A DNA stretch of 64,000 nucleotides from Patescibacteria group bacterium. GTDB lineage: Bacteria > Patescibacteriota > Patescibacteriia > UBA1558 > UBA10009. The stretch is from the NCBI GenBank assembly GCA_041662565.1, contig JBAZSE010000001.1, forward strand, positions 257,084 to 321,083, written 5' to 3'. This document shows, in pieces, positions 9,970 to 33,722 of the stretch. The notes under the pieces were generated by a model. The model was not told where the DNA came from. It made no database searches and worked only from the letters and a program-made list of their open reading frames with translations. Within the stretch, counting starts at the first letter, position 1, and every line of letters begins with the position of its first letter. The translations under genes were made by a program, and so were the position numbers.

Positions 9970-10222
9970 AGAATTAATAAAATCATCTTATCAGAAATCA
10001 ATTTAACAAACAACTGCATTTTTAACACCTTTTGCACTTTAAACTGTGGCTAACAAAAAAGCCGCTTAATTCAGGAACAATTTCTCAAAATACAACTACA
10101 ACCTCAATGTATTGGGGATTTTTCTAATGGAGTCCTGGTCGAGCTAAGCTCGATGGTCCGCATATTCACAATCTTTTTTCGATAGGGCTTTACTTTTAGG
10201 TATCTGGTGTTATTATAAAAGC

Positions 10223-10573
10223 ATGGTTGAAAATATGAGCAAAAACCGAAAAATAATTCTGGATAAACACGACGAAGCATTAACGGATTTTATTCGCACG
10301 GCGATTGACAAAGTTATTGCAAAAGCACATATGCCATCAGGGGTTGCCAAAAGAATTGTTAGTCGTGCTGTGTATCATCGGAATATGGGGCGCAAAGCCG
10401 CCATCGCTAATTACCCATTTAGCGGTATCTGTGAGGTAAGCGGGCTTCCTATAGATGACTCAATCAAGTCGCTTGATGAAATAGAGGGTGCCAAGGGCTA
10501 TGTTAGTGGGAATTTACGTTGGGTATGTCAAAAAGCAAATAATAATGGTACTGGAACTTGCGGTAAATGCTGA
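10223..10573 (+). CDS. small Endonuclease VII/HNH-fold-like protein with substituted catalytic histidines
   Basis: C-terminal pattern C-x...LDEIEG...GNLRWVCQKANNNG...CGKC resembles the Endo VII HLDHDH...RGLLCNLCN block, but has DEIE in place of DHDH. Confidence 0.3.
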   Translation: MVENMSKNRKIILDKHDEALTDFIRTAIDKVIAKAHMPSGVAKRIVSRAVYHRNMGRKAAIANYPFSGICEVSGLPIDDSIKSLDEIEGAKGYVSGNLRWVCQKANNNGTGTCGKC

Positions 10574-10640
10574 ATAAATCATTTCACATAGTATTACTTA
10601 TTTGCGAATTAAATAAAACAATTTATTTAAATATTTTTTT

Positions 10641-10832
10641 ATGAAAAAACAATTTTATACCTTTGTTATTTTAATTATTTTGTTTGTTGTTAGTACTTTC
10701 TATTGGTTTAATATTAGGCCGAGTGATATAAGAAAAACTTGTATAAATTACTCCATGGCTGATGCTGCAAATCAAGAAATTTTTTGGAATAATTATAAAT
10801 TTTGTCTTGCCAGTAAAGGTTTAAAAGAATAA
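10641..10832 (+). CDS. small membrane protein (1 TM)
   Basis: 63-aa ORF with one hydrophobic helix, in an AT-rich island. Confidence 0.3.
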   Translation: MKKQFYTFVILIILFVVSTFYWFNIRPSDIRKTCINYSMADAANQEIFWNNYKFCLASKGLKE

Positions 10833-10845
10833 TTTTATAAAGACA

Positions 10846-11481
10846 ATGAAAAAAATATTAGTAGTATTATTTTTAATTCCAATATTATCAGGGTGTTCTT
10901 TTATTAAAAATAATGTCGTAAAAAATAACAATATAGCCAAAACTGATAACTCAGCGCAGGACAACAATCTTAATTTAGCAACGACAACTGGCAATACACA
11001 AATAAGCAATTTAAATAATGATATATGTAAAACAGCTACTTTTACTCCGCCATTAGAACAAGAGATTGCCTATAATAACGAAATAAAACAAGATGAATAT
11101 GTAAAATATTTAAGGCGTTCGTTAGATGATTATTTATCTTCTAATTTTTCGACTCAATCTCGAGGTTTCGGACTAATTGATGGTATACACTATGCTGACT
11201 CCGCATATGGTAATTTTAATATGATCGACCCTGCTTATCTAAAAAGTAAATTTATAGTTTTATCAACTGATTTTAATCCATTTGGAGGCAAGGGAATAAC
11301 TTTAATATTTAAAAATAAGCCAGATAGAATATTCTATGCGTGGGTTTATAGATATATAGGAGTTGGTTATGATTTGCGTGATCTTAGTGATTACGAAAAA
11401 TTACAAGATGGCTCAAATGGTGTAAAAGAGGTTCAAGCGGGAGCTATTAATCAACTTTGTAATGACGAATTTGGTTTATAA
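10846..11481 (+). CDS. lipoprotein of unknown function
   Basis: Signal peptide with lipobox ILSGCSF, 211 aa. Local GC is very low (<30%). Confidence 0.5.
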   Translation: MKKILVVLFLIPILSGCSFIKNNVVKNNNIAKTDNSAQDNNLNLATTTGNTQISNLNNDICKTATFTPPLEQEIAYNNEIKQDEYVKYLRRSLDDYLSSNFSTQSRGFGLIDGIHYADSAYGNFNMIDPAYLKSKFIVLSTDFNPFGGKGITLIFKNKPDRIFYAWVYRYIGVGYDLRDLSDYEKLQDGSNGVKEVQAGAINQLCNDEFGL

Positions 11482-11673
11482 TTGATAATCAAATTGACTC
11501 GCTCAAGCGATATTGTTATAGTACTGGCAAAGTTAAAATCAATTGTTTTTTTGTGCTGGAATGTGGCAAGGCAAAAATTCTAATTGGGAATTTATAAGTT
11601 TTTATCATTTTGACTTTTCCAATGTTTTTGCTATAATGCCAGTGCTTAAAAAGTATAATATTAATTTACAATT

Positions 11674-12021
11674 ATGCTAAGATTAGCTAATTTATTTCGA
11701 CCAAAATTGCAAGATGAAGCCATGGATGCTTATTTTCATAGATTGCCCAATGGAATACAGGTAGAATGGTTTCGCGATGGGAATTTTATTATCGGTAATA
11801 TTTTTGCAGAGGGGAATAAGTATATGACTCAAGCCGTATCAGCCAATGAATTTATTGAGATGGTTAATGATACTTTATTGGCTGTTTATGATATTCCCAA
11901 AAACTATCAAAACGAACTATTAAAGTATAAAAAATTTAAGCCGTCAATTCAGGAATTTAATGATCTTAATAACGCCGCTATTAAAAAATCTTCGTTAAAA
12001 TTTGAAAAGCAATTAGCGTAA
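11674..12021 (+). CDS. HicB-like antitoxin N-domain protein (UPF0150-like)
   Basis: Pattern VEWFRDGNFIIGNIFAEGNKYMTQAVSANEFIEMVNDTLLAV fits the HicB N-domain consensus (vpdlpg..tqG.t.eEa..n..eai). It is adjacent to a HicA-like ORF. Confidence 0.4.
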   Translation: MLRLANLFRPKLQDEAMDAYFHRLPNGIQVEWFRDGNFIIGNIFAEGNKYMTQAVSANEFIEMVNDTLLAVYDIPKNYQNELLKYKKFKPSIQEFNDLNNAAIKKSSLKFEKQLA

Positions 12022-12027
12022 GAGATT

Positions 12028-12276
12028 ATGACAGAATACGCGGATATTAAATTAAAGAGACTTCGTAATTTTATTAAACATTTAAGCCATAGAACTAACA
12101 TAAAATTAGAAAGAGGCGGTGGCCATGTTGATAAAATTACCTATCCTCATTGGGCAAGGCCATTTCCATTACCCTCAAGGCACGGTACAGTCAATAAGCA
12201 TATTGTTAAGGATTTGTTGGAAAAGTTAATTAACGATGAAATTACCAATCAAGAGGAAATAGATAAAAAATTATAA
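12028..12276 (+). CDS. HicA-like mRNA interferase toxin
   Basis: 82 aa with G-H...YPHWARPFPLPSRHG...HIVKDLLEKL, matching the HicA/YcfA core (GSH...P.H...l....i...l). Confidence 0.5.
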   Translation: MTEYADIKLKRLRNFIKHLSHRTNIKLERGGGHVDKITYPHWARPFPLPSRHGTVNKHIVKDLLEKLINDEITNQEEIDKKL

Positions 12277-12282
12277 ACAAAA

Positions 12283-12310
12283 AACAACGGTTTTAAGCCG
12301 TTGTTTTTGA
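12283..12310 (+). terminator. rho-independent terminator (aacggttttaagccgtt plus T-run)
   Basis: Hairpin followed by TTTTT, immediately after the HicA-like stop. Confidence 0.55.
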
Positions 12311-12346
12311 TACTGGTCCGCCTTATGGGACGAAGTGGGAAGAAAT

Positions 12347-12375
12347 TTGACAGAATTATTGAAATAATCTATAAT
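12347..12375 (+). promoter_or_regulatory. consensus sigma70 promoter TTGACA-17-TATAAT
   Basis: Perfect hexamers with exact 17-bp spacing, about 200 nt upstream of the precursor-like ORF. Confidence 0.55.
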
Positions 12376-12576
12376 ATTATTGTAATAAAATACAGGGTCA
12401 AAATGCCTCAATAAACAGGCCGTTTTGACTTCTTTTATTATAAGGCAATTTTGCTTAAATTAAGCACATTGACAGTAAATTCAGATCTTTATCCGTTAAT
12501 TTCTTATAGTGCAATCAAGTTAAATTGGCGCTGAAAATCAGTAGCCAGCTAAGAGAAAGACGGTTGAGATAAATAC

Positions 12577-12759
12577 ATGGGAGTAAATTTGATGCTTTTT
12601 CCGAACATCAATCGTTGGCGAGATGAAGGATCTAGAATCCCATCATCAGCGCCAAGCAACGTTTCATCGGTCTTAAATGGCACGCAAGATAACAATCTTG
12701 CCGTGTCTCAAGACTGCGAAGCAGACCCGTGCGATTGCACTGGGGATGACGGGGATTAA
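12577..12759 (+). CDS. candidate RiPP precursor peptide (Cys/Asp-rich C-terminal core DCEADPCDCTGDDGD)
   Basis: 60-aa ORF directly upstream of the rSAM/SPASM gene and separated from it by a stem-loop. It has 3 Cys and 7 Asp in the last 16 residues. Confidence 0.4.
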   Translation: MGVNLMLFPNINRWRDEGSRIPSSAPSNVSSVLNGTQDNNLAVSQDCEADPCDCTGDDGD

Positions 12760-12829
12760 TGATTGAAACACCCGGGGTGGTAGAGGTTTTAACAAAATCT
12801 CCGCCACCCCAACATTTCAGGAGAGCAAC

Positions 12830-13858
12830 ATGACTCAACCGGTATTTTCTATCCAGTGGCATATTACTACACGTTGCCAGCAACGTTGCCGTCATTGCTA
12901 TCTTTTTACTTCTCCGGAAGCACAAAAGGAAATATCTGGAGAGAAAAGTGTCACTTTCGACAAGTTAAAACTGATCGCTGACAACTTAGTTTTTTCTTGT
13001 CAAAAGCTAGGCGCTAAACCAAAAACATCAATCACCGGAGGTGATCCAATCCTCCACCCATATTTTTGGGAGCTGCTAGCTTACCTCGAAAAGTTGGGTA
13101 TTAAAGTCAGCATTCTTGGTAATCCATTCAAAATTACCAATAAGGTCGCTGAAAAATTAACTCACCTGGGAGTTAGTAAATACCAAATGTCTTTAGATGG
13201 GCTTCCTGAAACTCATGATCGACTGAGGAAGCCGGGATCATTCGATCGGACAATTCGTGCCAGTAAGATTCTAAAGAAACATGGGATAAAAGTCGGCATC
13301 ATGACTACAGTTTCAAAGTTGAACGCCTCAGAGATACCCTCTTTGATTGAATTAGTAGCTAAAGAAGGAATAAATAGCTACTCATTCGCGCGCTATTGTC
13401 CGACTCACAACGATCTTGGTTATATGTTCAGCCCGCAAGAATACCGCAGTTTTTTAGCTTCGGTTTGGGAAACTTATACTAAGAATGTTGACAGAGGAAC
13501 TAAATTCACATTGAAAGATCATCTTTGGCTTTTATTCCTCAAGGAGGAAGGCCTATTCAGGCCAGAGCCTACTAATGGGATTATTATCAGCGGTTGCGGT
13601 CTTGGCATATCACACTTATCGGTTTTGGCTGATGGTACGGTTTATGCCTGCCGCAGATTTCATAGTCCCGTTGGCCAAGTTCCTGAGCAAAGTTTTTACG
13701 AGATTTTCACCGGAGTTCAAATGAATGAATTTCGGGATTATTCTCGCTTGGAAAAATGCAAGGATTGCGAATTGCTTTGTTACTGCCGTGGCTGTATGGC
13801 AGTCGCCTATGGCTTTACCAATCACTGGACTGCGCCAGATCCACAATGCTGGAAATAA
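12830..13858 (+). CDS. radical SAM enzyme with C-terminal SPASM domain (peptide-modifying maturase-like)
   Basis: N-terminal CQQRCRHC (CxxxCxxC), plus a C-terminal Cys cluster CRRF...CKDCELLCYCRGC typical of SPASM/twitch auxiliary Fe-S domains. Confidence 0.85.
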   Translation: MTQPVFSIQWHITTRCQQRCRHCYLFTSPEAQKEISGEKSVTFDKLKLIADNLVFSCQKLGAKPKTSITGGDPILHPYFWELLAYLEKLGIKVSILGNPFKITNKVAEKLTHLGVSKYQMSLDGLPETHDRLRKPGSFDRTIRASKILKKHGIKVGIMTTVSKLNASEIPSLIELVAKEGINSYSFARYCPTHNDLGYMFSPQEYRSFLASVWETYTKNVDRGTKFTLKDHLWLLFLKEEGLFRPEPTNGIIISGCGLGISHLSVLADGTVYACRRFHSPVGQVPEQSFYEIFTGVQMNEFRDYSRLEKCKDCELLCYCRGCMAVAYGFTNHWTAPDPQCWK

Positions 13859-13927
13859 CCGAATGGGATGGTTTACATTTTAGACCACCCCATTTTTTTT
13901 AAAGCTTATTTGTGATAAAATTGATAT

Positions 13928-14455
13928 ATGCAACAATTCATCAAAGAGGTTTTAAAATATGCCAATAAAGGTAAAATTTTAGACTTGGGAGCCGGGGTAG
14001 GAAAACAGGCCGAGAAATTTTTAGCAACCGGCGCTTCCGTTACTGCGGTTGATAAAAAAAAACCAAAAAAACAAAATCAAAAAATTATCTGGAAAAAATC
14101 CAGAATGGAAGAATTTATTTTTTCTTCGGATTTTACTGATGTTTATGATGTTATTTTCATGCAGAATATAATTCAATTTTTAGATAAAAAATGGACATTA
14201 GCAACTTTAATGCCTGTTTTACAAAGGCACTTATCTAAAAATGGAATAATAGCTATTAGAACTTTTTATAAAAATCCAATTCCTCCCTTTAATAGAGCCC
14301 CTCTCTCACTTTATAAAATCAACACTTTATTATTCTTATTCAAGGGATGGAAAGTTTTATTTGCCAGACAGTTTAAATATGACGGGCCAGGACTTGATGG
14401 AATTAAAAGGCGTTTTTATTTAAGCGATTTAATTGTAAAAAATCAGAAGAAATAA
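13928..14455 (+). CDS. class I SAM-dependent methyltransferase
   Basis: Motif I ILDLGAGVGKQA with a downstream acidic residue. 175 aa. Confidence 0.6.
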   Translation: MQQFIKEVLKYANKGKILDLGAGVGKQAEKFLATGASVTAVDKKKPKKQNQKIIWKKSRMEEFIFSSDFTDVYDVIFMQNIIQFLDKKWTLATLMPVLQRHLSKNGIIAIRTFYKNPIPPFNRAPLSLYKINTLLFLFKGWKVLFARQFKYDGPGLDGIKRRFYLSDLIVKNQKK

Positions 14456-14463
14456 AACAAAAG

Positions 14464-14488
14464 CAACGGCTAAAACCGTTGTTTTTAA
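14464..14488 (+). terminator. rho-independent terminator (aacggctaaaaccgtt plus T-run)
   Basis: Hairpin then TTTTT after the methyltransferase stop. The same hairpin family appears at 12283. Confidence 0.5.
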
Positions 14489-14489
14489 T

Positions 14490-14566
14490 TGGTCCGCACA
14501 GCAGGATTCGAACCTGCGACCGTTTGCTTAAAAGGCAACTGCTCTACCAGGCTGAGCTATGTGCGG
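14490..14566 (-). tRNA. tRNA-Lys (anticodon UUU)
   Basis: Hand-folded cloverleaf: acceptor CCGCACA/TGTGCGG, D-arm GCTC..GAGC, anticodon loop CTTTTAA, T-arm GCAGG-TTCGAAT-CCTGC, encoded CCA. Confidence 0.85.
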
Positions 14567-27360: not shown

Positions 27361-28620
27361 ATGCTTGAACAGGCAAATTGTATGAGAAATGTTTTTATAA
27401 AATTTATCCCTTTTTGGATTTTTCTAATTATCTATAAGCTAGGAGGCAGTTTGCACTATTCCTTAATCTCACCTCTTGGGGAAAGGCTTTTACCTTTATG
27501 GATTGTCGGGCTTTTAATGGGCGGCAGCTCAATTATCCAAATGTTGCTTGATGTTCCGGCAGGTCATTTTTTGGATCGCTTTGGTTATCTTAAACTGTTA
27601 AAACTAACGACTTTTATTTTTCTCTTTGCCGGCATTGCCTTTATTTTTAATTTTACCATTGCCACTTATATTATTAGCCTGATAGCCGCCACTTTCGGTT
27701 GGGTGTTGTTTGGTCCCGGAGTTAACGCCTATATTCTTTCTCAGGCACCTAAAAAAAATTCCGGCACTTTCATCTCCTTTAGGGATATTTTCGGCTCAGC
27801 TGGTGTTTTTCTGGCCAGCGCCGTTTTAGGCCTAGTACTTGCCTTAACTCCGACCACCATAGGAACAATAATATTCGCCATAATGCTGGCGGCACTGGCA
27901 GCGCTTTACTTTAGCCCTCCAGATACCATTTCTGTTCATCATGAACAAAAACTCCCCACACAACATCATTATATAAGAAGAAATTATCCTCATAAACTTT
28001 TGCCTATTTTAAAAAAGCTTAATCCGGCTAGTTCCATGCTTTTGCTAACAGGACTTACTTCTTCTATTTTTTACGGCGTCATCTGGTTTGTAGTGCCTAT
28101 AGTAATTGCCAATAGCGCTAACTCGGGCTTGCTCAGTATCGGTCTAGGTATTTTTGATTTTGCCATAGTAGCGCTTGGATTTCTATTAGGTAAGATGGCG
28201 GACAAAGGCAATAAAAGAACGCTGGTCTTTTTTGGATTGTTATTGTTTGCCGTATCGGGAATTCTGATCGGTTTTAATTTTAACTGGCTGTTCCTGGTTT
28301 TGGGATTTTTAGCTACCACTGGCGACGAAATGGCAAGCATTTCCTTATGGTCATGGTTGCATAGTTTAGATAAAGAACACGCTAATGATGGCCTGCTTTC
28401 CGGCGCCATTAACCTTTTTCAAGATTTGGGCTGGGCCATCGGACCGATTATTTCTGGATTTCTTTTTACCTTGATCGGGCCTTCATGGACTATTATGTTT
28501 TCAGCTGTCTTGTTATTCGCCACTTGGATTGTTTACCAATTTTTAATCAAACAGCACCGCCTGTCTTCAACCGGAATTGATATTCCTAAAAAGCCGCATC
28601 GAGCCAGGCATCATGTGTAA
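27361..28620 (+). CDS. MFS transporter
   Basis: 419 aa, 12 predicted TM helices, and an MFS-like loop motif (GHFLDRFGY). Confidence 0.75.
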   Translation: MLEQANCMRNVFIKFIPFWIFLIIYKLGGSLHYSLISPLGERLLPLWIVGLLMGGSSIIQMLLDVPAGHFLDRFGYLKLLKLTTFIFLFAGIAFIFNFTIATYIISLIAATFGWVLFGPGVNAYILSQAPKKNSGTFISFRDIFGSAGVFLASAVLGLVLALTPTTIGTIIFAIMLAALAALYFSPPDTISVHHEQKLPTQHHYIRRNYPHKLLPILKKLNPASSMLLLTGLTSSIFYGVIWFVVPIVIANSANSGLLSIGLGIFDFAIVALGFLLGKMADKGNKRTLVFFGLLLFAVSGILIGFNFNWLFLVLGFLATTGDEMASISLWSWLHSLDKEHANDGLLSGAINLFQDLGWAIGPIISGFLFTLIGPSWTIMFSAVLLFATWIVYQFLIKQHRLSSTGIDIPKKPHRARHHV

Positions 28621-28785
28621 GAAAAAGATATTTCACAATTTGTATAATAAGTTATAACCTCGTCTACTATGGTGAGCCACTAAAAAGGCCTTATTTTATA
28701 GGGCTTTTTTGATTGACCGCAAAAGGGATTAGAACTTTTCATAATTATCAAAATATGATAATCTATCTTTATAAGTATATCCAAT

Positions 28786-29640
28786 ATGAAAAATATTATT
28801 ATAGAAAAACCAATAAATGATTCCCTGCCAGCTCAATTATTATCTTTATATAATGCATTTAAAAATATTAAGGATGGCGAAGATTTAAATTTTGATTTGA
28901 ATAAACTGGTTTGGGTTAGTCCATTGTTGGTTTTACCTATCAGTGCTTACATCGGTTCAACTAACAGTAGTTATAATTTAGATAACTGTTCGGTTAAAGA
29001 ATATCTAAGTATAATTAATTTTCCAAAAGGAATTGATTCGGTATCGTCTTTAGACGAGGCTATGCAAATAAATAAAAGTTATATTCCGATTGGTAAATTA
29101 ATAAAAAATCTAGGCATAGAACGGGAGCGCCTGGAGTCTATGTTTAGTAAAATGATCTATAAAGTAGTTGATACTTCTGCGCAAGGAGCCAGAAGTGCGA
29201 TTTACTATCCTATTGAGGAATTGGTTGGTAATATTTTTGAGCATAGTAAAAAAGAGGAGGGTTTTATCTTTGGGCAGTATTACCCAAAAAAAGAATACCT
29301 GGATATTTGTATCGTTGATAGAGGCCGAGGATTAAAAGGTTCTTATAAAGAAGAGCAAAATATAATAATTACCGATGCAGAAGCTATTAACAGAGTGATG
29401 AGCGGTCATTCCGTTAAATCGGATATAGAGAGAGGTTATGGTGTTAGAACTTCTAAACGTGTAGTGTGCGAAGGTTTGGGAGGAAGTTTTATATTATTAT
29501 CAGGATCAGTCGCTTTAATTTCTTCCCAAAATCAAGACAAAATAGTTGAATTGCCAAATTTTTATTGGCAAGGTGTAATTGTTGCGTATCGAATTCCAAA
29601 ACCAATCAAATCATTTGATATTTCTAAGTATGTGGAATAG
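28786..29640 (+). CDS. GHKL/histidine-kinase-like ATPase domain protein (no HisKA domain)
   Basis: N-box-like ELVGNIFEHS, the G1 motif DRGRGL, and the G2 motif GYGVRTS in the C-terminal half. Confidence 0.5.
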   Translation: MKNIIIEKPINDSLPAQLLSLYNAFKNIKDGEDLNFDLNKLVWVSPLLVLPISAYIGSTNSSYNLDNCSVKEYLSIINFPKGIDSVSSLDEAMQINKSYIPIGKLIKNLGIERERLESMFSKMIYKVVDTSAQGARSAIYYPIEELVGNIFEHSKKEEGFIFGQYYPKKEYLDICIVDRGRGLKGSYKEEQNIIITDAEAINRVMSGHSVKSDIERGYGVRTSKRVVCEGLGGSFILLSGSVALISSQNQDKIVELPNFYWQGVIVAYRIPKPIKSFDISKYVE

Positions 29641-29678
29641 TATTACAAGTTATGTTATACTAAAAAAAGAGGAGAAAT

Positions 29679-30026
29679 ATGGAAAAAATTACTAAAAACA
29701 CTATAAAAATAGCCGATTTAGTCGCCCCTGTAATTAGCTCCAGGGATATAGCTCTTATTCTTAAGAGTAGTATTTTAAAGTCTAATTTCTCTATAGTTGA
29801 GTTGGATTTTTCTAATGTTGAATTTATTTCCAGGTCCGCCGCTCACAGCTTGATTTTAATGAAAGAAGATTTAAAAAGAAGATTTTTTAAAAAGAGAGAT
29901 GTAATTCTTGTTAATACCAATGAAGAGGTTAGTAAAATGTTGCGTATAATTGCGGCTAATAGAGTTTCCCCTAAATCCAAGCCCAATTTTAAAGCTGAAA
30001 AAATAGATATAACAACCTTGGCTTAA
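29679..30026 (+). CDS. STAS-like (DUF4325-like) small protein, partner of the upstream GHKL ATPase
   Basis: 115 aa with ELDFSNVEFISRSAAHSL, resembling anti-sigma-antagonist/STAS-like folds. It is probably translationally coupled to the GHKL ATPase gene, with a 38-bp gap. Confidence 0.4.
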   Translation: MEKITKNTIKIADLVAPVISSRDIALILKSSILKSNFSIVELDFSNVEFISRSAAHSLILMKEDLKRRFFKKRDVILVNTNEEVSKMLRIIAANRVSPKSKPNFKAEKIDITTLA

Positions 30027-30091
30027 ATTTCGGGTATAAAAATATAACCCTTTTTCTCCTTAAATACCGTTATAATATCGTTGACTAAGCG

Positions 30092-30161
30092 GAGCCATTA
30101 AAAAACCACCAAAGAAATTTGATGGTTTTTTATTATTCCGAGATTAATGATATTAAGGGAT
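30092..30161 (+). repeat. 70-bp direct repeat R, copy B, followed (30186-30205) by a third 20-nt tRNA-3-prime-end mimic GAATCCCTCCTCCCGAGCCA
   Basis: Sequence identity with 27046-27115. The 20-mer is identical to tRNA positions 27032-27051. Confidence 0.6.
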
Positions 30162-30251
30162 GAGAAGTTTACACCTCGGAGGGGTGAATCCCTCCTCCCG
30201 AGCCATCAAAAAACATTAGTGAAAACTAGTGTTTTTTGTTATAATGTTTCT

Positions 30252-30428
30252 ATGAATAAAAACAGATTACTATATTTAATTCTCGGCATATTAGCCATAT
30301 TATTCGGAGCATTTCTGTTTGTTTATGGTGAATTTGACGATAGTCCTGGAGGACAAGTGATTGGCCTCGTATTGGCTATTACCGGCATTGTAGTTATTAT
30401 TAAGAGCAGGAAGCAAAATTTTAGCTAA
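30252..30428 (+). CDS. small 2-TM membrane protein
   Basis: MNKNRLLYLILGILAILFGAFLF... The ORF track extends further upstream into the repeat, but the internal ATG start is more plausible. Confidence 0.3.
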   Translation: MNKNRLLYLILGILAILFGAFLFVYGEFDDSPGGQVIGLVLAITGIVVIIKSRKQNFS

Positions 30429-30521
30429 GCTAAATCAGATCTAATTTTGTTTTAGGGGGCAAATCATAAGCCCAGGTTATTTAAAAGTACATTAAAGAAT
30501 TTTAGCGTACTTTTTTGTTTG

Positions 30522-30550
30522 TTTGACACTATATTATAAGGGTAGTATAA
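30522..30550 (+). promoter_or_regulatory. consensus sigma70 promoter TTGACA-17-TATAAT
   Basis: Perfect hexamers preceded by a hairpin terminator (30482-30516), upstream of ORF 30658-30984. Confidence 0.5.
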
Positions 30551-30657
30551 TAAGGATAGTATAACTTTAGGATTATTAAATCTTCTTTTCCATTGGTATG
30601 TGGACAAGCTAATGGATTGGCTGATAAATTATTTTATTATTAATAACAAATATCTAT

Positions 30658-30984
30658 ATGGAAAATAAATTCAAAAAAGGCCTTATCTTGGGCGGATTGC
30701 TCGCTGTTGGCGCGGCCATTGGCTTTGCTTTAACCAAAGAAGGCCAAGAATTAACCGAAGAATTGCAAAAAGACGTTAAAACTTTGGCTAAGCATTTAAA
30801 AAAGAATCTTGGCGATTTGGAAGATGTTACCAAAGAAAACTTTAATGAATTGGTGGATAACTTGGTTGAAGAGTATGCCGCCAAGCATGAACTGGCTGCT
30901 GAAGCCAAAATTTCCTTAATTAAGGCCTTACAAGCCAAATGGCATGAAATGGAAGAAGAATATTTGTCCGAGCAAGATAAATAA
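30658..30984 (+). CDS. YtxH-like/DUF948-like small protein (N-terminal TM, coiled-coil)
   Basis: N-terminal GLILGGLLAVGAAIGFAL followed by a charged helical region. Confidence 0.35.
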   Translation: MENKFKKGLILGGLLAVGAAIGFALTKEGQELTEELQKDVKTLAKHLKKNLGDLEDVTKENFNELVDNLVEEYAAKHELAAEAKISLIKALQAKWHEMEEEYLSEQDK

Positions 30985-31077
30985 AAGACGTAAGATTAAA
31001 AATAGGCAATTATAAAACCCGGATCTTTTAAGATCTGGGTTTTTTAAAGTTACAGAAAAGTGATAGGGATAACAAAT

Positions 31078-31287
31078 TTATTTTAACAACTCGTCTATGG
31101 TGCAACGTAAGGCGTCAGAAATCCTTTTAACGGTTTCTACTCGGGGATCCAGGGTAGCGCCGGATTCAATTTTAGTTATGGTATAAAGAGTTACGCCCGC
31201 TAACTTAGAGAGTTTATCTTGAGACAAACCGGCCTTTAAGCGGTATTTTTTGATATTTCTGGCAATAGAAATAGTGATTTCCGGCAT
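31078..31287 (-). CDS. XRE-family HTH transcriptional regulator
   Basis: 69 aa with IKKYRLKAGLSQDKLSKLAGVTLYTITKIESG, the Cro/C1 HTH pattern. Confidence 0.8.
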   Translation of the reverse strand: MPEITISIARNIKKYRLKAGLSQDKLSKLAGVTLYTITKIESGATLDPRVETVKRISDALRCTIDELLK

Positions 31288-31498
31288 ATGTTTGACAGTT
31301 TATTAATTTAATGGTAAAATTATACTATACTTATTTTATATATATTATTGTACTACCAAAATTATAATAGTAGTAAATCACCCTTTTTACCGATTTTTAA
31401 TTTAAGAAATACTAAACTAATATTAGTTTACATTAATTAAACTAAAAAAACAAGACCTAACTCCCTTATAAGTAAAAAATTAAAATTAGCTCAAGGAG

Positions 31499-32080
31499 GT
31501 GAAAAATATGGTAAATAATAAAGTAGATGAAAATATCAAAGAGTCAAAAGAAGTCGCCTTGCATTACATGAAAACATTAGTCGAGGTTGCCAGGGAATCT
31601 TTTTTAATTCTTGATTCCGAGCTTAGGGTTGTTTCGGCCAACCCGACTTTTTATCAGAGTTTTAAGGTTTCAGAAAAAGAAACCGAAAATATGCTTCTTT
31701 ATAATTTAGGCAATGGGCAATGGGATATTGTTGAACTTAAAAAATTATTGGAAGAAATTCTTCCGGAAAATAATGTAATTAAGGATTATGAAGTTACGCA
31801 TGTTTTTGAAAATATCGGACAAAAAACAATTGTGCTTAATGCCAGGCAAATTGATTCGGTGCAATTGATTATTTTGGCTATGGAAGATGTAACTGCTAAA
31901 AATCAGTTGGAACATAAATTATCCGAGTATACTAAAAATCTGGAAATTAAAATCGCTGAGCGGACCAAGCAGCTTACCATCAAAGTTAAGGAACTGGAAG
32001 ATCTTAATAAAAGCATGGTTGGCAGAGAAATAAAAATGGTTGAACTGCAGAAAACAATTGAAGAGTTGAAGAAAGATTAA
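31499..32080 (+). CDS. PAS-domain protein with C-terminal coiled coil
   Basis: PAS-like fold pattern in residues about 20-130, followed by a heptad-rich tail. Confidence 0.45.
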   Translation: MKNMVNNKVDENIKESKEVALHYMKTLVEVARESFLILDSELRVVSANPTFYQSFKVSEKETENMLLYNLGNGQWDIVELKKLLEEILPENNVIKDYEVTHVFENIGQKTIVLNARQIDSVQLIILAMEDVTAKNQLEHKLSEYTKNLEIKIAERTKQLTIKVKELEDLNKSMVGREIKMVELQKTIEELKKD

Positions 32081-32198
32081 TAACATTCAAAAAAACAGCT
32101 CGGGTTTTACTTTAACAAAAATTGAAGCTGTTTTGTTTATAATTTTTTGGTTTAAATTGAGGTTTTTTGAAATCTAAAAAAGTGGTATAATATGAAAT

Positions 32199-33722
32199 AT
32201 GAATACCATTTCAACAAAAAGAGTTTATTTCGTTGCAGTTGTTTCTTTAGTATTGGGAATCTTATTTGATTATCTGTTTTACGATAAACAAATAGGCATT
32301 TCATTTTTGATTTATGAAGTTTTACTCTTGGCCGGCTTATTTTGCTTTTTGTTTGCTTTTAAAATCCGGCCGGATAAGGCCGTTTTTTTGTTTTTGCCGG
32401 CAATTTTATTTTTTGCCTTAATGGTCGGGATTAGAGATAATATTTTTTTGCTATTTTGGAATGTTGTGATGACGATTGGTTTAATGCTGTTAATGGCGCA
32501 TCAAATAATCGGCCGAAAAATAAATCAGATCCTGTTTTTAGATTATCTTAAAACCGCCGTTATTGTGCCTTTTAGCATGTTAGGTAAATCTATTGGAGCT
32601 TTAGGTAGAATAATTGCCGTGGGTAAAGGCAATAAAGAGAACCAAAAAACTTCGCAAATTGCCAAAGGTATTTTAATTACCTTGCCCATTGCCTTGGCTT
32701 TTTTATTTTTATTAACTTCGGCGGATTTGGTTTTTAAAAAATTGCTTACTAATTTATTCAGTTTTAATTTTAGCATTAATCCCGATGTGGTGGCGCAAAT
32801 TTGGTGGGCCGCGTTTTTTGCTTTTTTGTGGCTGGGTGTTTATATTTACATTTTAGAAAATGCCGGCCAGCCGAAAAATTCCGAGCCGGATTTATTAAAC
32901 CGGATTTATAAGTTTGGCAATATTGAAGCCGGCATTTTATTTACTACCCTAAATGTTTTATTTTTGTCTTTTGTAATTATCCAAATAAAATATTTATTTG
33001 CCGGCCATGGCGCCATAACCCAATTCGGTTACACTTACGCCGAATACGCTCACAAGGGTTTTGGAGAGCTGATCGCGGTTGCTGTAGTAACTTTTGCCCT
33101 TGTTTTTTTGGCCGAAAAGCATATTGAGCGAAGTGAAAATAAACCCAACAGGTTATTTAAAATTTTAACATGTATTTTAATGCTGCTGGTAATAGTGATC
33201 ATGGCTTCGGCTTTTACCAGATTAGGCATTTATGAACAGGCCTATGGTTTTACCTTGTTGCGCCTTTTGGTTCAGGCCTTTATTATCTGGCTAGCCGTTG
33301 TATTTTTGTGGTTAACTTATAAAATTATCAGGAACACAAAAGATCGGCCGTTTATCTTTGGCATATTTTTGTCGGTTGTAACGTTTTTTGTCGTTTTTAA
33401 TCTGTTTAATCCCGATGCTTTTGTGGCTAAAAAAAACATCAATCAATTTGTTAAAACAGGCGCTTTGGATACCAAATATTTGTCAACTTTATCAGCGGAT
33501 GTGGTGCCTGATTTGATGCCATTGTTAGCCATGCCTCAAATCCAGGATAAATACGGTAATCAGCTGGCTATAGAGATTGCGTTCATCTTAAAGAATTTTT
33601 ATGATTTATCAGCCAAACAACCTTGGCAATCTTACAATCTTTCTCGCATAAGGGCTATTGAGCTGATAAATAGCCAGTGGGGTCTGATTTCAACCTTAGC
33701 CCAGAAGAAGTTAATTAATTAA
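32199..33722 (+). CDS. polytopic membrane protein of unknown function
   Basis: 507 aa with at least 10 hydrophobic helices. Confidence 0.4.
   Translation: MNTISTKRVYFVAVVSLVLGILFDYLFYDKQIGISFLIYEVLLLAGLFCFLFAFKIRPDKAVFLFLPAILFFALMVGIRDNIFLLFWNVVMTIGLMLLMAHQIIGRKINQILFLDYLKTAVIVPFSMLGKSIGALGRIIAVGKGNKENQKTSQIAKGILITLPIALAFLFLLTSADLVFKKLLTNLFSFNFSINPDVVAQIWWAAFFAFLWLGVYIYILENAGQPKNSEPDLLNRIYKFGNIEAGILFTTLNVLFLSFVIIQIKYLFAGHGAITQFGYTYAEYAHKGFGELIAVAVVTFALVFLAEKHIERSENKPNRLFKILTCILMLLVIVIMASAFTRLGIYEQAYGFTLLRLLVQAFIIWLAVVFLWLTYKIIRNTKDRPFIFGIFLSVVTFFVVFNLFNPDAFVAKKNINQFVKTGALDTKYLSTLSADVVPDLMPLLAMPQIQDKYGNQLAIEIAFILKNFYDLSAKQPWQSYNLSRIRAIELINSQWGLISTLAQKKLIN

Follow-up and report, generated by a model that had tools for sequence, protein, structure and literature searches.

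A putative radical SAM/SPASM peptide-modification cassette of borderline ACGX type, bracketed by att-like repeats at a tRNA-Lys gene of a Patescibacteria genome

A stretch of 64,000 nucleotides (nt) from a Patescibacteria group bacterium (assembly GCA_041662565.1, contig JBAZSE010000001.1, positions 257,084 to 321,083 of the forward strand; hereafter the window) carries, beside a tRNA-Lys gene, a compact locus in which a small open reading frame (ORF) is followed by the genes for a radical S-adenosylmethionine (SAM) enzyme with a SPASM domain and for a class I SAM-dependent methyltransferase. An initial annotation had listed a promoter, the small ORF, a hairpin, the two enzyme genes and the tRNA-Lys, all of which were found where it had placed them (Table 1), and had read them as the locus of a peptide made by ribosomes and modified after translation (RiPP). 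That this is a radical SAM/SPASM peptide-modification locus is borne out by the family match of the enzyme and by the co-occurring precursor. The locus (12341-14443, about 2.1 kb) is probably a cassette complete in itself that yields a Cys-rich acidic peptide modified after translation, and it appears to have reached its present site through recombination at the tRNA-Lys 3' end. The enzyme family is already defined in databases; the precursor class and the accessory gene set are new.

Table 1. Features of the cassette and its borders, in window coordinates
Feature	Position	Strand	Basis or remark
att-like direct repeat, left copy	12283..12321	.	terminator hairpin and TGGTCCGC; aligns with 14461-14497
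sigma-70-type promoter, TTGACA-17-TATAAT	12347..12375	+	12/12 consensus match
promoter-proximal hairpin followed by a U-run, putatively terminator- or attenuator-like	12395..12443	+	folding z-score
structured 5' leader ending at the Shine-Dalgarno sequence GGAG (12579-12582)	12483..12582	+	RNAalifold, covariance model
precursor peptide gene, 55 amino acids (aa), N-x-W-R leader motif and core DCEADPCDCTGDDGD	12592..12759	+	
precursor/maturase intergenic stem-loop	12774..12810	+	z = -4.6; 6/6 loci
radical SAM/SPASM enzyme, 342 aa, without RiPP recognition element (RRE) domain, borderline ACGX-system member	12830..13858	+	TIGR04340, Pfam
175-aa SAM-dependent methyltransferase of class I, weakly TehB-like	13928..14455	+	Pfam, NCBIfam
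att-like direct repeat, right copy	14461..14497	.	bidirectional terminator and 3' end of tRNA-Lys
tRNA-Lys (UUU), apparent integration target	14490..14566	-	ARAGORN

Among NCBIfam models, the radical SAM enzyme is best matched by TIGR04340 (radical SAM/SPASM domain protein, ACGX system), with 407.2 bits against a cutoff of 400 in a full-length alignment (model positions 2-339 of 341). Its relatives within the candidate phyla radiation (CPR) score in the same range (373 bits for L001, 377 for L081, 397 for L006 and 420 for L082), whereas canonical members from Lachnospiraceae, Selenomonadales and Synergistaceae reach 553-581 bits. These values are consistent with a borderline member of the ACGX family in an outlying Patescibacteria branch. 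The NCBI record of an identical protein, from a Patescibacteria metagenome-assembled genome, is already named as an ACGX-system protein. A neighbour-joining tree built from 157 homologues places the window enzyme with L001 and L081, next to L082/L083 and then to Saccharibacteria enzymes, with the canonical ACGX enzymes outside. The initial annotation had proposed a maturase of the ranthipeptide or sactipeptide kind, which a search with hidden Markov models (HMMs) did not support: PapB (NF047865) gave 62.4 bits (cutoff 340) and the sactipeptide maturases AlbA and StsB 59.8 (cutoff 850) and 76.7 (cutoff 625), the characterised thioether formers listed all staying at or below 104 bits, and the SCIFF (TIGR03974) and QhpD models are not among the 25 best family matches. 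An assignment to anaerobic sulfatase-maturating enzymes (anSMEs; TIGR03942, 68.2 bits against a cutoff of 349) or to the enzymes of cofactor biosynthesis was rejected on the HMM scores together with the co-occurrence of the peptide; models of heme and mycofactocin radical SAM enzymes are found among the weaker matches.

Pfam recognises the Radical_SAM (81 bits) and SPASM (40.6 bits) domains. The CxxxCxxC motif (C16/C20/C23) and seven SPASM cysteines (C256, C274, C310, C313, C319, C322 and C340) are invariant in all 157 homologues, and the enzyme thus carries a single motif for the radical-SAM cluster together with the complete seven-Cys SPASM motif (for two auxiliary clusters). An AlphaFold2 model of high predicted accuracy (pLDDT 94) begins its fold at residue 5 and has no N-terminal domain. 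No RRE was found: CxxxCxxC begins as early as residue 16, an upstream extension of the ORF is not possible, and none of the seven neighbouring ORFs gave a PqqD-like match. Solved structures retrieved by Foldseek and by PDB sequence search are anSME, SuiB, PqqE and SkfB, at 16-21% identity and of the generic SPASM/twitch kind; anSME has the lowest Foldseek E-value (TM-score 0.69-0.71) and SuiB a TM-score of 0.76. Such matches do not discriminate between candidate chemistries.

The small ORF (12577-12759) had been described as a 60-aa Cys/Asp-rich precursor. It is real and conserved, but the length needs correction, since both close relatives have ATA in place of the first ATG (12577) and a conserved GGAG lies 9 nt upstream of the second ATG (12592), a start there giving a 55-aa product, MLFPNINRW...DCEADPCDCTGDDGD. 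An 84%-identical homologue (P0127) is likewise called as a 55-aa protein starting with MLF. A search for peptide homologues elsewhere found one adjoining the radical SAM gene of the window clade in all of the 11 distinct loci with flanking sequence, at enzyme identities of 57-97%. A profile of nine members, run with HMMER against 1.84 billion representatives, recovered 18 peptide clusters (at about 50% clustering), and the precursor class has the consensus ...FNHWRK..DK...AP(R/H)TV....DC(S/T)ADPC(S/N/T)CTGCS(E/D)WD. W9, P21, D41-C42 and P46-C47-x-C49-T50-G51 are invariant among the nine aligned members, the C-terminal core following the pattern D-C-x-x-D-P-C-x-C-T-G. The window peptide ends in CTGDDGD and, like P0142 and P0145, is without the fourth Cys and the Trp. 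The core of P0148, DCAACGSGCSGGGCSGSC, bridges towards the ACG type. Compared with its two closest relatives, the window gene has 14 synonymous and 9 non-synonymous codon differences in one case and 19 and 12 in the other, several of the silent changes falling within the invariant core; this synonymous excess points to a reading frame under purifying selection. Neither the 55- nor the 60-aa form of the exact peptide occurs in a collection of about 15 billion proteins, and the peptide is therefore unannotated in its source genome. Other CPR branches (the Saccharibacteria loci L006, L008, L011 and L087, and L082/L083) have different cores, ...CNGGCAECGAAGCDTGGSTSCSGCGACGNL and ...GNSTCTTSCSGGP, so that precursor diversification is broad in this enzyme family; the leader motifs F-N-x-W and P-x-x-V-x-x-V-L are common to the precursors of these branches.

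The methyltransferase of the window passes the Pfam cutoffs of TehB and Methyltransf_11. That it belongs with the radical SAM enzyme, as first proposed, agrees with a consistent linkage: a class I methyltransferase adjoins the radical SAM gene in 8/8 loci with enough sequence, across the wider CPR branch and including the sister locus L082/L083. These methyltransferases fall into three types, none of which retrieves another in BLAST comparisons. That of the window is encoded on the same strand as the radical SAM enzyme, which it also follows in L165 and L173; that of L001, L081, L163 and L175 is convergent with it, and that of L082/L083 is again on the same strand. Such repeated recruitment of non-orthologous methyltransferases argues that methylation is part of the pathway. 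Weak TehB matches occur in all the types, and the L081 type also passes the TPMT cutoff, which may be taken as a hint, at most, of thiol methylation. On another contig, a 74%-identical copy of the window methyltransferase comes after a HExxH protein and the C-terminus of a FibroRumin-system radical SAM maturase (TIGR04136, 148 bits). FibroRumin-type contigs include L170 (1-2074) as well as L168, L169, L171 and L172, the HExxH protein of L168 being weakly similar to YydH/LiaK. In L170, TGGTCCGCGCAG is present twice beside what by sequence is an apparent tRNA 3' end, another att-like duplication.

In comparison, 121 of the 159 loci retrieved for the enzyme family have, ahead of the radical SAM gene, a peptide of the form MALSNLxGWN...(ACGxACGxxDKPEEKP)n that matches TIGR04341. 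The window locus resembles them in several respects: an enzyme of about 340 aa with the seven-Cys SPASM motif, a precursor gene directly upstream on the same strand, and perhaps a similar start of the leader (x-N-x-x-x-W), the x-N-x-W-R motif of the window being reminiscent of the canonical M-A-L-S-N-L-x-G-W. It differs in that its precursor has no A-C-G-x repeats, with no ACG unit in the core, and offers a single short core, DCxADPCxCTG. The neighbours differ as well. Around canonical radical SAM genes, 107 of the 159 loci have a gene for a Sir2-like protein, 99 one for a divergent HxlR-type regulator, 85 one for a PNPOx-ferredoxin fusion, 63 one for a nitroreductase and 26 one for a Zn-dehydrogenase, with L017 (1660-5461) and L020 (5008-6292) as examples among L002-L160; the window has a methyltransferase and none of the HxlR, nitroreductase, PNPOx-ferredoxin or Sir2-like genes. 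Whereas the canonical hosts are gut Firmicutes, those of the window type are groundwater-type Patescibacteria. The canonical neighbourhood hints at a role in redox or electrophile stress rather than at an antibiotic. The initial annotation had regarded the lack of an RRE, a protease and an exporter as unusual; it is in fact typical of the whole ACGX family, no RRE, protease or transporter/exporter having been found at the canonical loci either. Such absences are thus traits of the family and, in the canonical systems at least, suggest a function inside the cell.

Upstream of the coding region lies one of 2 perfect TTGACA-17-TATAAT sites observed in the 64-kb window, against 0.04 expected. The promoter is kept in L161 and L173, and a related cassette from another sample has TACAAT as its -10 element; conservation extends to the 216 nt that separate promoter and start codon. 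A hairpin with a U-run occupies the region 20-70 nt past the promoter, and the 69-nt stretch that contains it (12382-12450) folds at -18.1 kcal/mol (z = -4.5). L161 has a hairpin of different sequence at this position too (z = -6.0). The 5' leader further downstream forms an extended helix of about 100 nt, for which RNAalifold proposes 36 pairs, 6 of them with compensatory changes among three sequences. A covariance model of the leader matches only in the window, L161 and L162, with no more distant copies, and Rfam has no family for the leader or the hairpins. A second, partial copy of the leader lies at positions 1-37 of L162. The 12382-12450 hairpin and the 12483-12582 helix may together constitute a cis-regulatory leader. 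Between the precursor and radical SAM genes, 16 of the 17 possible pairs of the stem-loop are formed, and the surrounding 70-nt intergenic region folds at -26.3 kcal/mol (z = -4.6). A stem-loop recurs at this position in all six loci compared (the window and five others), although the sequences are unrelated, and in the relatives, notably the more distant ones, it is mostly followed by a U-run. The initial idea of an attenuator-like hairpin fits this conserved structural feature, the U-tract of the window being short.

The borders of the cassette speak for its mobility. An imperfect direct repeat of about 39 nt, consisting of a terminator hairpin and TGGTCCGC, brackets it exactly, and TGGTCCGC corresponds to the last 8 nt of the tRNA-Lys gene as read on the plus strand. 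The 24-nt pattern CCGTTGTTTTTNATNNTGGTCCGC gave 0 matches in 100 shuffles. The left copy is also scored as a minus-strand terminator. To judge from these features, the two copies look like an attL/attR pair. Homology with three other copies of the cassette (L161, L165 and L173) starts at 12341 and stops at 14441-14443, and the flanks differ beyond. L173, a contig of 2,493 nt from another sample (ERZ27249422), is arranged in the order methyltransferase C-terminus, a 130-aa 3' fragment of pgk (393 nt), promoter, peptide, radical SAM gene and methyltransferase N-terminus; its cassette is about 88% identical to that of the window, and within the methyltransferase gene its two ends meet to within 2 nt, an arrangement that indicates a unit of about 2.49 kb, circular or in tandem. 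The same junction is present in L161 (1-1249). The element, circular or tandem and about 2.5 kb long, would thus carry a host-gene fragment as its recombination site, and the likeliest reading would be a small cassette recombining at the 3' ends of host genes.

Horizontal acquisition had also been proposed on grounds of composition, and here the two parts of the proposal must be separated. The module does look mobile, given its flanking repeat and its different contexts elsewhere, but composition is no evidence for it: the radical SAM gene has a GC content of 0.42, like that of the flanking host genes (0.41-0.445), and AT-richness is here confined to the methyltransferase gene (0.30) and the segment at 10.4-12.3 kb (0.25-0.32). 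The claim that the GC content of the whole module is unlike that of the host was thus not confirmed, and composition as a mark of foreign origin is ruled out for the radical SAM gene.

Taken together, these elements would work as follows. The cassette would have entered by recombination at the 3' end of the tRNA-Lys gene. Its consensus promoter would drive a transcript with a structured leader, coding for the 55-aa precursor, and the intergenic stem-loop would let the mRNA of the precursor exceed that of the enzyme in amount. The radical SAM enzyme would bind the leader peptide directly and then modify the three invariant cysteines C42, C47 and C49, after which the methyltransferase would methylate the product. 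With neither a protease nor an exporter linked anywhere in the ACGX family, this product would probably remain in the cell or exit via an unlinked route.

For the modification itself, an SbtM-like four-electron oxidation of Cys to 5-thiooxazole is our tentative lead, held with somewhat less than even confidence, because SbtM (TIGR04082) is the next-best family of the enzyme by a wide margin (212 bits, E = 1.6e-62, against at most 133 bits for every other family). The match to SbtM/SbtMa, the nearest characterised radical SAM family, covers the whole radical SAM-SPASM region, and CPR members of the ACGX family score higher with the SbtM model than canonical ones. The substrate is again a ribosomal peptide with Cys or selenocysteine, which SbtM converts to a thiooxazole or selenooxazole with the loss of four hydrogens (PMC11002830). 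As 5-thiooxazoles are readily S-alkylated (bioRxiv 10.1101/2025.11.18.689057), a thiol methyltransferase would suit this route; a thiooxazole, being a heterocyclic thiol, could be S-methylated and could bind soft metals. One difference is that the window precursor has no selenocysteine codon, no in-frame TGA being present in 12592-12759, which stops with TAA. A ranthipeptide-like product with Cys-to-Asp/Glu or other thioether crosslinks is possible but rather doubtful; here the enzyme would join the sulfur of Cys to the Asp beta-carbon (Glu or some other acceptor being possible too) and the methyltransferase would modify a carboxylate or an amine. Many characterised SPASM enzymes acting on Cys-rich peptides do form thioethers, among them PapB and CteB (the maturases of freyrasin and SCIFF) and QhpD, which makes Cys-Asp/Glu thioethers, and acidic residues near the cysteines of the window peptide are possible acceptors. 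In the canonical ACGX repeats, D or E stands at +4 of each unit's last Cys in 332/382 cases (87%), which is the Cx3D spacing that PapB uses in freyrasin to join Cys sulfur to the Asp beta-carbon; most CPR cores retain D45, and past their last Cys come acidic residues. Of the Cys-Asp pairs to which the initial annotation had pointed, however, only C42-x-x-D45 is mostly kept in relatives, and even there D45 is Cys or Ala in some members; D48 is replaced by N, S or T and D52 mostly by C. With two of three pairs unconserved, a Cys-Asp thioether is possible but not indicated. The thioether maturase models score far too low, as given above, the ranthipeptide maturases differ also from the window system in which no RRE is found, and SbtM makes no thioethers. 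Some other chemistry altogether we consider unlikely.

A different question is what the product is for. It could be an intracellular peptide for redox or metal handling, or a cofactor precursor, rather than a secreted natural product, which would be compatible with either chemistry and which we regard as rather unlikely overall. Mycofactocin and pyrroloquinoline quinone are also made by SPASM enzymes and would be its analogues. An intracellular role would explain the absence of a linked protease or exporter, and it is in keeping with the redox-type genes around canonical loci, none of which has a transporter or protease, with a Cys-/Asp-rich core like that of metal-binding peptides, and with the heme and mycofactocin enzymes among the weaker HMM matches. 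However, the window and the other CPR loci have a methyltransferase instead of redox neighbours, and a tiny mobile cassette suits an accessory trait better than a core cofactor. The remaining alternative does away with the peptide: the small ORF would be spurious, the radical SAM enzyme would act on a protein, as anSME does, or on a small molecule, and the methyltransferase would be an unrelated neighbour. One may cite for it the lowest Foldseek E-value of anSME among solved structures, the lack of any annotation of the precursor in public records and the occurrence of methyltransferase homologues away from radical SAM genes. The likeness to anSMEcpe (PDB 4K37) extends to similar size, a TM-score of about 0.7, the absence of an RRE domain in sequence comparison and two auxiliary clusters, and anSMEs act on the beta-carbon of Cys or Ser. 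But identity is 19-20%, the anSME model scores far below its cutoff, and the window has neither a sulfatase nor a C/S-x-P-x-R motif, a dedicated small peptide co-occurring instead. That peptide stays adjacent to the enzyme in every locus with flanks, with an invariant core motif and a coding region under synonymous excess, and a methyltransferase is retained in 8/8 loci despite non-orthologous replacement. A spurious ORF is therefore most improbable, and conservation already brings this alternative close to refutation.

Several points nevertheless weigh against a mobile cassette for a modified, tentatively thiooxazole-bearing, ACGX-type peptide. The window peptide and four CPR relatives give no match to TIGR04341, the model of the ACGX-repeat precursors, even at E <= 10; in the same scan three of four other peptides adjacent to radical SAM genes match at 31-113 bits, the short L032 peptide giving none. 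The pairing by hhalign of the window leader LFPNINRWRDEG with the canonical ALSNLSGWNNGT is weak (probability 2%, E = 0.023). The SbtM match lies under the family cutoff (212 vs 350) and begins only at model position 195 (195-515 of 516), the N-terminal region of about 190 aa that SbtM has being missing from the window enzyme. Close homologues of the window methyltransferase are also encoded beside non-RiPP genes (an AMP-binding enzyme, in L166/L167), and the TehB and TPMT matches are weak and mixed with generic methyltransferase models. The intergenic hairpin of the window has only a short U-tract and therefore may affect RNA stability rather than termination. No integrase was found in or near the cassette in scans with NCBIfam, PHROGs and Pfam. 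Finally, the literature searched contains no experimental study of any member of the ACGX family (a widespread one, for which 2,411 radical SAM homologues were counted at E <= 1e-20, human-gut Lachnospiraceae contributing many), so that the chemistry is argued here from homology and motifs only.

The locus represents a minimal, non-repetitive version of the ACGX system, with one 15-residue core, one enzyme and one methyltransferase, and as such offers an easy entry to the chemistry of the family. Its precursor class has been overlooked by current annotation. Although Patescibacteria genomes are tiny, a RiPP-like cassette is maintained and passed around among them. Together with the att-like repeats, the circularly permuted contig hints at a minute mobile unit without integrase, which would merit interest in its own right if confirmed. 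A bolder proposal, which we put forward as a long shot, is that the Patescibacteria ACGX branch is an oxygen-independent route to methylated 5-thiooxazole peptides, in which an SbtM-related, RRE-less radical SAM enzyme turns the three invariant cysteines of DCxADPCxCTG into heterocyclic thiols, a TehB/TPMT-like methyltransferase adds the cap, and the whole travels as a cassette of about 2.1-2.5 kb able to circularise and to recombine into host-gene 3' ends (tRNA-Lys here, pgk elsewhere). If this were true, the abundant ACGX peptides from gut anaerobes would represent anaerobic equivalents of the thiooxazole metallophores made by MNIO enzymes.

Some observations concern the surroundings of the cassette and its copies. 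Between dnaB and the cassette (10154-12276) lie five small ORFs, namely a 116-aa HNH-endonuclease-like protein, a 211-aa lipoprotein and three products of 63, 115 and 82 aa without family; PHROGs and Pfam scans of these AT-rich neighbours returned only the weak HNH-endonuclease match and the lipoprotein signal. TGGTCCGCA at 10154 was considered as a further att or tRNA-end remnant and set aside as weak, as it does not align past 9 nt, and a fourth TGGTCCGC at 31960, within an ORF, is put down to chance. On the groundwater contig L163 (6231-7400), the cassette radical SAM gene has an in-frame stop and a frameshift near its C-terminus, due to either a pseudogene or an assembly error, and a gene with a C39-peptidase domain 5.5 kb upstream is probably unrelated. 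The second of the two perfect TTGACA-17-TATAAT sites of the window, at 30523-30551, is located in a second AT-rich stretch (28500-32500, GC about 0.32).

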